Of a DNA stretch of 64,000 bases, positions 14,961-14,998 are shown in pieces. The notes under the pieces are model-generated. The model saw nothing but the letters and a program-made list of their open reading frames with translations, was not told the DNA's origin and did no database searches. Made by a program: the position numbers and the translations under genes. This DNA comes from Escherichia coli (GTDB lineage Bacteria > Pseudomonadota > Gammaproteobacteria > Enterobacterales > Enterobacteriaceae), in assembly GCF_050920415.1 (NCBI RefSeq), contig NZ_CP169309.1; one strand, written 5' to 3'. How positions within the stretch are numbered: the stretch's first letter is position 1; each line of letters starts with the position of its first letter.

Positions 14961-14998
14961 AGGCTCCAGATGAGTCAATTCTTACAGGAAATAGTACC

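Follow-up and report, generated by a model that had tools for sequence, protein, structure and literature searches.

Loss of a Linked Regulator Gene as the Probable Origin of the Short bglA/yqfB Spacer in Escherichia coli

Introduction

Divergent transcription units of Escherichia coli that overlap at their 5' ends were reportedly defined as a class by Conway et al. in 2014. This class is among the closest described relatives of the locus considered here, the 38-bp spacer between the divergent genes bglA and yqfB. The spacer occupies positions 14,961 to 14,998 of a 64,000-nucleotide stretch of the E. coli contig NZ_CP169309.1 (assembly GCF_050920415.1), referred to below as the window. We propose that the short spacer is probably an old deletion scar, left when a regulator gene was lost and bglA came to rest on the regulator's former promoter. 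This evolutionary explanation, in which an RpiR-type regulator was deleted, bglA took over its promoter, and the yqfB initiation region has long served two purposes, appears to be new; the bglA transcription start site (TSS) itself is already in public supplementary data, and the genome is very well studied.

Huang et al. (2020) captured 5'-overlapping divergent units, asd/yhgN for example, as p19 clusters of double-stranded RNA (dsRNA) (PMC7373196). The bglA/yqfB pair belongs to this class through P2, the second of two bglA promoters described below: the neighbors lie on opposite strands, the P2 RNA is complementary to yqfB over its initial 139 nt, a region from which one RNase III duplex near the reporting floor was captured. 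It differs from the described members in that its dsRNA is weak (1-2 reads per million) and, in the tables examined, falls outside the 301-383 defined clusters. It also differs in that the main bglA TSS, P1, lies in the spacer, where any overlap between the P1 RNA and the yqfB RNA hinges on a predicted yqfB TSS. Bidirectional promoters with a symmetric -10 element (Warman et al. 2021; PMC12825309) likewise place a short AT-rich element between divergent genes, and polymerase binds it one way at a time. Their TSSs diverge, however, usually by 18 bp, and yield RNAs that do not overlap, whereas at bglA/yqfB the partner TSS would fall inside yqfB.

The yqfB/rpiR-like/bglA locus of Klebsiella, Citrobacter, Enterobacter, and related genera shares with E. 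coli the same yqfB start region, the motif TGnTATnAT, a spacer of similar length (43-46 bp compared with 38-44 bp), and a BglA protein that is 90-96% identical. Unlike those genera, Escherichia lacks the 245-amino-acid regulator with its HTH_6 and SIS domains and a block of approximately 115 bp upstream of bglA. Finally, activation of the bgl operon or of bglA by an insertion sequence (IS) or transposon resembles the history proposed here in that an incoming upstream promoter sets the expression of a beta-glucoside gene, but the change at bglA/yqfB would be an ancient, fixed deletion associated with low expression and not a laboratory insertion.

Results and Discussion

A regulator gene separates yqfB from bglA outside Escherichia

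We compared 80 loci encoding relatives of YqfB, taken from one genome per species, and located bglA in each. The bglA gene abuts yqfB solely in the six Escherichia loci (E. coli, E. albertii, E. whittamii, and cryptic clades), where 43-44 bp separate yqfB from the conserved bglA start. In 64 loci from approximately 20 other genera (Citrobacter, Klebsiella, Raoultella, Enterobacter, Kluyvera, Leclercia, Lelliottia, Pluralibacter, Kosakonia, Phytobacter, Pseudocitrobacter, Yokenella, and others), the distance is 896-904 bp, and the interval is filled by one open reading frame (ORF) of approximately 245 amino acids that lies on the strand of bglA and encodes HTH_6 (RpiR-type) and SIS domains. Since no more than about 43-46 bp lie between the start of this regulator and the yqfB ATG, the comparison indicates that the tight head-to-head spacing is ancestral and that the original partner of yqfB was the regulator. 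An orthologue table published by Kim et al. (2012) pairs b2900 with KPN_03328 (yqfB) and b2901 with KPN_03330 (bglA) and leaves KPN_03329 unmatched; thus, a single Klebsiella gene without an E. coli orthologue lies between yqfB and bglA. In the window, neither the interval that separates bglA from yqfB nor the DNA next to them holds an ORF with HTH_6 and SIS domains; the E. coli locus thus lacks the defining regulator of the RpiR/MurR-regulated sugar-phosphate catabolic loci, which carry such a gene next to the catabolic gene.

In the other genera, a conserved block of approximately 115 bp follows the regulator and precedes bglA (...ttgttatatcgtgacat...tttgYTAGACTC...). This block, which is absent from Escherichia, probably comprises the operator and the extended -10 promoter of a regulated bglA. 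In Klebsiella, Citrobacter, and Enterobacter, it holds an inverted repeat (e.g. ggtaacaaattacc) together with ttgttatatcgtgacat...tgYTAGACT.

When the E. coli spacer is aligned with the long spacers, it resolves into two flanks, each colinear with one of the two outer ends of a long spacer. On one side, the match covers the 16-17 nt nearest yqfB (through 'cctgta'). On the other, the bglA leader aligns from 'tcatctggagcc' onward, with its best match, 'tcacctggagcc', in Intestinirhabdus at the same 9-nt distance to the start codon. Approximately 855 bp present in the regulator-bearing loci are missing from Escherichia. In Salmonella arizonae and diarizonae, decayed pieces of the regulator, its first codons among them, make up a spacer of 157 bp; the Intestinirhabdus spacer, at 660 bp, contains no intact regulator.

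From these sequences we infer, as the parsimonious reading, that the regulator was lost in Escherichia and not gained elsewhere. The opposite direction of change, in which tight bglA/yqfB spacing is the ancestral state and the regulator was inserted later in the other genera, draws on the existence of two states and on the ambiguity of a few nucleotides at the junction. We consider it very improbable, since the regulator stands at the same place in all 64 loci of some 20 genera, Salmonella and Intestinirhabdus carry decayed remnants or a spacer of intermediate length, the yqfB gene of the Pasteurellaceae has no bglA nearby, and bglA has in other genera a conserved upstream block of its own that Escherichia is missing.

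Two mapped promoters drive bglA, one of them across the yqfB start codon

A strict consensus promoter scan of the gap returned no match. It was superseded by our own position-weight scan of both strands, the sites of which were ranked before the TSS data were seen. Three sites ranked at the top, two of them on the minus strand. One is TACTAT (14996-14991), preceded by TG and with a predicted TSS at 14984 (99.76th percentile). The other, inside yqfB, is AAAAAT (15149-15144), also after TG, with a predicted TSS at 15137. Published SMRT-Cappable-seq data (Yan et al. 2018, PMC6131387) describe bglA (b2901) as monocistronic, with a TSS at position 3043638 of NC_000913.3 (37 reads in M9 and 35 reads in rich medium) and a 3' end at 3045143, and Supplementary Data 2 of the same study lists a second bglA TSS at 3043485. 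Converted to window coordinates (K-12 coordinate = 3058622 minus window coordinate), these start sites are 14984 and 15137, exactly the two positions predicted by the scan; we refer to the corresponding promoters as P1 and P2. Both TSSs lie 7 nt downstream of a TGn-xAxxAT motif. A check of the bases showed that three of four forward-strand TSSs nearby fall on a pyrimidine preceding an A and that those on the reverse strand fall on G; the forward coordinates of the published table may be 0-based, in which case the true bglA starts are the A residues at 14983 and 15136.

The P1 TSS lies within the spacer, 24 nt before the bglA ATG at 14960 and 30 nt before an alternative GTG at 14954. Its extended -10 element, TGgTACTAT, is the reverse complement of 14991-14999; it opens with a T opposite the A of the yqfB start codon, and the region upstream of the -10, including a weak -35, sits within yqfB codons. 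The hexamer matches the consensus at four of six positions (T1, A2, A5, and T6). With TG one base before a hexamer that has A2 and T6, and with a mapped 5' end 7 nt downstream, within the expected 6-8 nt, P1 has the sequence and TSS features of an extended -10 sigma-70 promoter.

The whole of P2 is contained in yqfB, in antisense orientation, and its TSS is 139 nt into the gene. Its -10-like element, TGcAAAAAT, is a by-product of the yqfB codons for Tyr-Phe-Cys and varies freely at synonymous sites in other genera, so we rejected the idea that P2 is conserved as a promoter. The idea that the P2 transcript has a structured leader was also rejected, because the fold is no better than that of shuffled sequences (z = 0.47), and a search of Rfam with 14500-15600 gave no family match. 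Nor does the pair qualify as an excludon: the P2 leader, which has no unusual structure, covers only 139 nt of yqfB, and the two enzymatic activities, beta-glucoside hydrolysis and N4-acetylcytidine deacetylation, are unrelated. A p19-captured RNase III product from K-12, a 22-bp duplex with 88 and 166 reads on the two strands (1.0 and 1.9 reads per million, RPM; PMC7373196 Table S3), maps downstream of the P2 TSS and short of the yqfB ATG, where pairing of P2 RNA with yqfB mRNA would place it. This dsRNA from the 5' coding region of yqfB suggests that antisense RNA is present there, although its signal is near the reporting floor of the study.

The initial annotation of this stretch, which was made from the sequence, had argued that both promoters must lie largely within the neighboring coding sequence or overlap one another. 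The mapped sites agree with this crowding, in that there is no room for two separate promoters: the P1 TSS is in the gap, its -10 element covers the yqfB start codon, and the remainder of P1, like all of P2, is in yqfB. The annotation had also proposed TSS mapping for both genes, and the published data supply it for bglA.

The P1 -10 motif is conserved where the regulator is present

For the 64 regulator-bearing loci, we read the strand opposite yqfB from the yqfB start codon and obtained 42 distinct sequences. These read C-A-T-G-n-T-A-T-n-A-T-T-C-C, and only the two n positions vary freely: the TG, T6, A7, and T11 are present in 42/42, A10 in 41/42, and T8 in 40/42. The motif corresponds to the extended -10 consensus TGnTATAAT and varies exactly where such promoters tolerate change; the complement of the yqfB Shine-Dalgarno sequence comes directly after it. 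The orthologues carry the hexamers TATTAT, TATGAT, TATCAT, and TATAAT, and Escherichia carries TACTAT, or TATATT in one cryptic clade. A substitution in the Nissle-derived strain SYNB1934, G14994T, which is the only single-nucleotide polymorphism in the two lower-identity matches opened, produces TAATAT, a common variant, and leaves TA..AT in place.

In Salmonella and Intestinirhabdus, the hexamer has decayed to two or three of six matches (GGTTAT, AGTTAT, CAGGCT), and yqfB and its ATG are retained. These are lineages in which the regulator is lost and the spacer is still at least 157 bp long. The simplest account of this pattern would be that the motif is dispensable for translation of yqfB and that it was the promoter of the regulator, now serving bglA as P1.

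The shape of the P1 hexamer raises another reading, in which a single -10 element with pseudo-symmetry would serve both genes as a bidirectional promoter in the Warman/Grainger sense, driving bglA to the left and yqfB to the right from TSSs about 18 bp apart and producing RNAs that do not overlap. The opposite strand of TACTAT, AATAGT, has four of six consensus matches, including A2 and T6, and such promoters are common in E. coli, with a preferred spacing of 18 bp (PMC12825309). The partner TSS would nevertheless fall at about 15002, past the yqfB ATG, so that the RNA could not encode YqfB and would lack the conserved AGGAAA Shine-Dalgarno sequence, and neither yqfB nor bglA appears in the text supplements to the 2026 work on bidirectional promoters in E. 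coli (PMC12825309). We therefore regard a shared bidirectional element as quite unlikely.

A candidate promoter for yqfB

No yqfB TSS is listed in the SMRT-Cappable-seq data, the libraries of which exclude cDNA shorter than 1 kb, and a short yqfB mRNA would escape that method (PMC6131387). Romero 2014 has no entry for a yqfB start site, and Kim et al. (2012) gives the orthologue table only, without E. coli or Klebsiella TSSs for these genes. The SMRT-Cappable-seq listing also contains no 1.2-kb yqfB-trhA RNA, and trhA has its own TSS; the absence of this RNA is a weak sign that yqfB and trhA are not transcribed together.

The best plus-strand -10 element in our scan is TATCAT, at the bglA end of the gap, with a predicted TSS at about 14967 (99.76th percentile). 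Its complement, ATGATA, forms two additional codons ahead of the conserved bglA start, which are present in Escherichia only. It is kept in all Escherichia sequences aligned, and Intestinirhabdus has 'aacgcaa' where E. coli has 'tatgata'. We predict that TATCAT is the best candidate for the yqfB -10. The opposite-strand ATGATA ahead of the bglA GTG may then owe its presence to this role and not to bglA translation.

Since the proposed deletion would have removed the ancestral DNA upstream of yqfB, the Escherichia yqfB promoter would be new or rebuilt and would lie in the left part of the gap and the 5' coding sequence of bglA. A TSS at about 14967 would yield a 32-nt yqfB leader carrying AGGAAA. 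The two promoters would then face one another, with RNA 5' ends that overlap by approximately 18 nt and polymerase footprints that overlap by more than 20 bp, and both are therefore predicted not to be occupied at once. At bidirectional promoters of E. coli, basal transcription is too low for polymerases to compete unless one side is strongly activated (PMC12825309); by analogy, interference between the bglA and yqfB promoters is expected to be small. No common regulator site is evident for the two genes, both of which are weakly expressed, and the shared or mutually exclusive regulation that the short gap had seemed to imply is thus not demonstrated. A very short divergent spacer need not mean co-regulation.

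Alternatively, the yqfB promoter could lie well inside the bglA coding sequence and give yqfB a long leader antisense to the 5' end of bglA, with mutual regulation via RNase III as a possible outcome. Divergent operons that overlap at their 5' ends are the commonest class of strong dsRNA loci in E. coli (PMC7373196), and P2 of bglA already overlaps yqfB from the other side. This arrangement is nonetheless doubtful, as the plus strand of 14800-14950 has no promoter-like site above the 96th percentile and the Table S3 rows listed include no dsRNA duplex under bglA (PMC7373196).

Proposed history of the locus

The deletion that we favor can be set out as follows. In the ancestor of the Enterobacteriaceae, yqfB would have faced the start of an RpiR/MurR-family regulator about 43-46 bp away, and bglA would have lain downstream of that regulator behind a promoter-like block of its own. 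The regulator would have been driven by an extended -10 element, TGnTATnAT, on the strand opposite the yqfB translation-initiation region, the TG of the motif being the complement of 'cA' in the yqfB cATG. The Escherichia lineage would then have lost approximately 855 bp comprising the regulator gene, its 3' flank, and the promoter region of bglA, which would have left about 17 nt of yqfB-proximal DNA joined to a bglA leader of about 20 nt with GGAG. The bglA gene would now be transcribed from the former promoter of the regulator, P1, with P2 as a second, non-conserved antisense promoter inside yqfB. Because both the linked regulator and the operator would be gone, bglA should be expressed without regulation and at a low level. 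Phospho-beta-glucosidase A was reportedly described as constitutive by Prasad and Schaefler.

Several points weigh against this interpretation. About 9 nt at the junction can be assigned to neither flank. The TAT.AT motif also lies within the spacer between the Shine-Dalgarno sequence and the ATG of yqfB, so its conservation could partly serve yqfB translation, and the decay that serves as a control for this comes from two independent lineages. The equation of P1 with the promoter of the regulator is an argument from conservation. By chance alone, approximately one site scoring at the 99.7th-99.8th percentile is expected in a region of this size, and the yqfB start is missing from the SMRT-Cappable-seq listing. 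Finally, the dsRNA signal barely exceeds the 1 RPM floor of the study, in which 87% of genes reach at least 1 RPM at the gene level (PMC7373196).

The chances are roughly even for a fuller version that extends to the whole history of the Enterobacteriaceae. According to this version, the few bases that separate the yqfB ribosome-binding site from its ATG would have served throughout the family as the -10 element of the divergent gene as well; a single Escherichia deletion of about 855 bp would have exchanged the gene served, from a sugar-phosphate-sensing RpiR-type regulator to bglA. A regulated enzyme would thereby have become one with low constitutive expression, and yqfB would have been forced onto a new promoter, TATCAT, drawn from the first codons of bglA.

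On this history, regulation can be rewired when a deletion places a gene behind the promoter of its neighbor, and one short stretch of DNA can play two roles on opposite strands, namely translation initiation of yqfB and the -10 element of a divergent gene. It offers a reason for the unregulated, weak expression of bglA in E. coli and bears on the engineering of beta-glucoside or cellobiose use. In practical terms, edits near the yqfB start codon, yqfB knock-outs included, will hit the bglA promoter. The explanation is coherent and testable and of modest importance; it opens no major question.

Expression of bglA

In Table S2 of PMC7373196, bglA has values of about 10-11 in two expression columns, compared with 105-148 for fusA and 1223-1876 for ackA. 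When growth on beta-methyl-glucoside was selected for, transposons with outward-facing promoters were found repeatedly in yqfB, where they activate bglA (PMC10258560), which indicates that native bglA expression is limiting and that transcription arriving from yqfB is productive. Loss of RppH is an alternative route to growth on this substrate and, according to work cited in that paper, raises bglA mRNA approximately 2.5-fold (PMC10258560).

Start codons and length of the spacer

From the sequence and the ORF list, the start codons of minus-strand bglA (K-12-style ATG) and plus-strand yqfB are 38 bp apart, as the initial annotation had stated, and its identification of the two genes is borne out by RefSeq annotation, by domains, and by a match to PDB 2XHY. 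The spacer of K-12 MG1655 is also 38 bp (yqfB, 3043312-3043623; bglA, 3043662-3045101), and the window does not differ from K-12 anywhere in 14939-15105. In a 100%-identical strain, the RefSeq annotation pipeline PGAP instead starts bglA at the GTG at 14954, which gives a protein of 477 amino acids and a gap of 44 bp, and PGAP has chosen this GTG in all other RefSeq genomes opened as well. The GTG occupies the position of the ATG start of the orthologues in approximately 70 loci, where tblastn alignments begin at residue 3 of K-12 BglA. Orthologue genes start ATG AAA AAA CTC, and the N-terminus MKKLTLP is conserved; the K-12-style protein begins MIVKKLTLP. The GGAG sequence is 9 nt from the GTG and just 3 nt from the ATG. 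On the basis of homology and Shine-Dalgarno spacing, the GTG is the probable true start of bglA and should replace the K-12 ATG. PDB 2XHY and the paper on the crystal structure of BglA from its native source are of no help regarding the N-terminus, since the deposited sequence copies the 479-amino-acid annotation. We note that the curated K-12 annotation (ATG, 479 amino acids) and PGAP (GTG, 477 amino acids) conflict over 14952-14960.

The initial annotation had suggested that a longer bglA, with an ATG ending at 14978, would shrink the gap further. That codon is a TTG (caa on the plus strand, 14976-14978), and the better alternative start, the GTG, lengthens the gap. We rejected the extended ORF (485 amino acids) because it has no Shine-Dalgarno sequence, is not conserved, and would start only 6 nt from the mapped 5' end. 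A 70-amino-acid plus-strand ORF, 14970-15182, with its ATG inside the spacer was rejected too, as it overlaps yqfB out of frame and nothing supports its status as a gene.

The disagreement between annotations over the bglA start could suggest that the short gap is an artifact of a wrong start codon, but this is barely credible. The disagreement shifts the boundary by 6 bp only; the yqfB start, which is preceded by a conserved Shine-Dalgarno sequence, is common to the 80 loci, with alignments from residue 1 in 79; BglA has a conserved N-terminus; and the P1 TSS leaves no space for a start further upstream. The positions of the features discussed are collected in Table 1.

Table 1. Coordinates in the window of features at the bglA/yqfB locus.
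Feature	Position	Strand	Basis
bglA coding sequence (CDS), 6-phospho-beta-glucosidase A	13521..14960 (PGAP start 14954)	-	ORF list; 100% RefSeq annotation match; PDB 2XHY sequence match
GTG, probable bglA start	14952..14954	-	Orthologue alignments; GGAG 9 nt upstream; PGAP
Candidate yqfB -10 TATCAT	14955..14960	+	Top plus-strand position-weight match; predicted
38-bp spacer (44 bp if bglA starts at 14954)	14961..14998		Sequence; ORF list; K-12 comparison
bglA Shine-Dalgarno GGAG (plus strand ctcc)	14964..14967	-	Sequence; homologous to 'cacctggagcc' upstream of Intestinirhabdus bglA
bglA P1 TSS	14983..14984	-	SMRT-Cappable-seq, PMC6131387 Supplementary Data 1 and 2
yqfB Shine-Dalgarno AGGAAA	14986..14991	+	Sequence; GGAA conserved (opposite-strand TTCC) in 40-41/42 distinct sequences
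P1 extended -10 TGgTACTAT	14991..14999	-	Position-weight scan; TSS 7 nt downstream; conservation
yqfB CDS, N4-acetylcytidine amidohydrolase, ASCH domain	14999..15310	+	ORF list; RefSeq; domain search; start shared by 80 loci
22-bp RNase III dsRNA product site	15062..15085		PMC7373196 Table S3
bglA P2 TSS (K-12 3043485), antisense in yqfB	15136..15137	-	PMC6131387 Supplementary Data 2
P2 extended -10-like TGcAAAAAT	15144..15152	-	Position-weight scan; TSS predicted near 15137
trhA (yqfA) own TSS (K-12 3043184)	15438	+	PMC6131387 Supplementary Data 2; base check

Rarity of the spacer and other observations

The bglA/yqfB gap is the shortest among the 10 divergent CDS pairs of the window, the others being 54, 102, 111, 167, 251, 290, 415, 434, and 478 bp. 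Against 27 other divergent pairs, drawn from the window and from 150 kb of K-12, in which the median gap is 227 bp and one pair (bioH/yhgH, 37 bp) falls below 50 bp, the gap is uncommon, in roughly the lowest 5%, yet not unique. The arrangement is fixed in E. coli: of 5426 complete genomes, 5425 carry a single copy of a 91-bp stretch across the gap, which in 4105 shows no sequence difference.

The bioH/yhgH pair of E. coli K-12, found in the 150-kb sample, resembles bglA/yqfB in being divergent with a spacer below 50 bp: the start codons of bioH (minus strand) and yhgH/gntX (plus strand) are 37 bp apart (NC_000913.3, 3544845-3544881). The second-shortest divergent gap of the window separates idi (minus strand) by 54 bp from a plus-strand 'hypothetical protein' of 30 amino acids that overlaps yqfG on the other strand (25566-25712), and this gap depends on the doubtful small ORF. 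One enterotoxigenic E. coli (ETEC) isolate among the 5425 genomes (NZ_LR882997.1, 907935-908140) has a 5-bp deletion at the equivalent of about 14989-14994 in the window, which takes away the greater part of the yqfB Shine-Dalgarno sequence and disrupts the -10 element of bglA P1 (TACTAT to TACTCT); either a sequencing error or a natural knock-down of both genes could account for it.

Among the matches listed for 13400-16400, this segment is 100% identical to strain MFDS1022581, a Korean food isolate, and about 97.6% identical to the other top complete genomes, with 3 records at or above 99% and 5419 in the 95-99% band. The gcvP-ygfZ segment seems to derive from a divergent lineage or to be a recombined block. 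In the convergent spacer between trhA and ygfZ (16134-16328), …PDATLTRLIMP… occurs twice among the ORF translations of both strands, as is typical of REP/BIME repeats. Positions 59376-64000 are strain-variable according to RefSeq and carry a toxin gene of the GhoT/OrtT family, an IS3 transposase gene with a programmed frameshift, a gene for an HTH-domain protein, and the start of sctC (type III secretion, ETT2-like).

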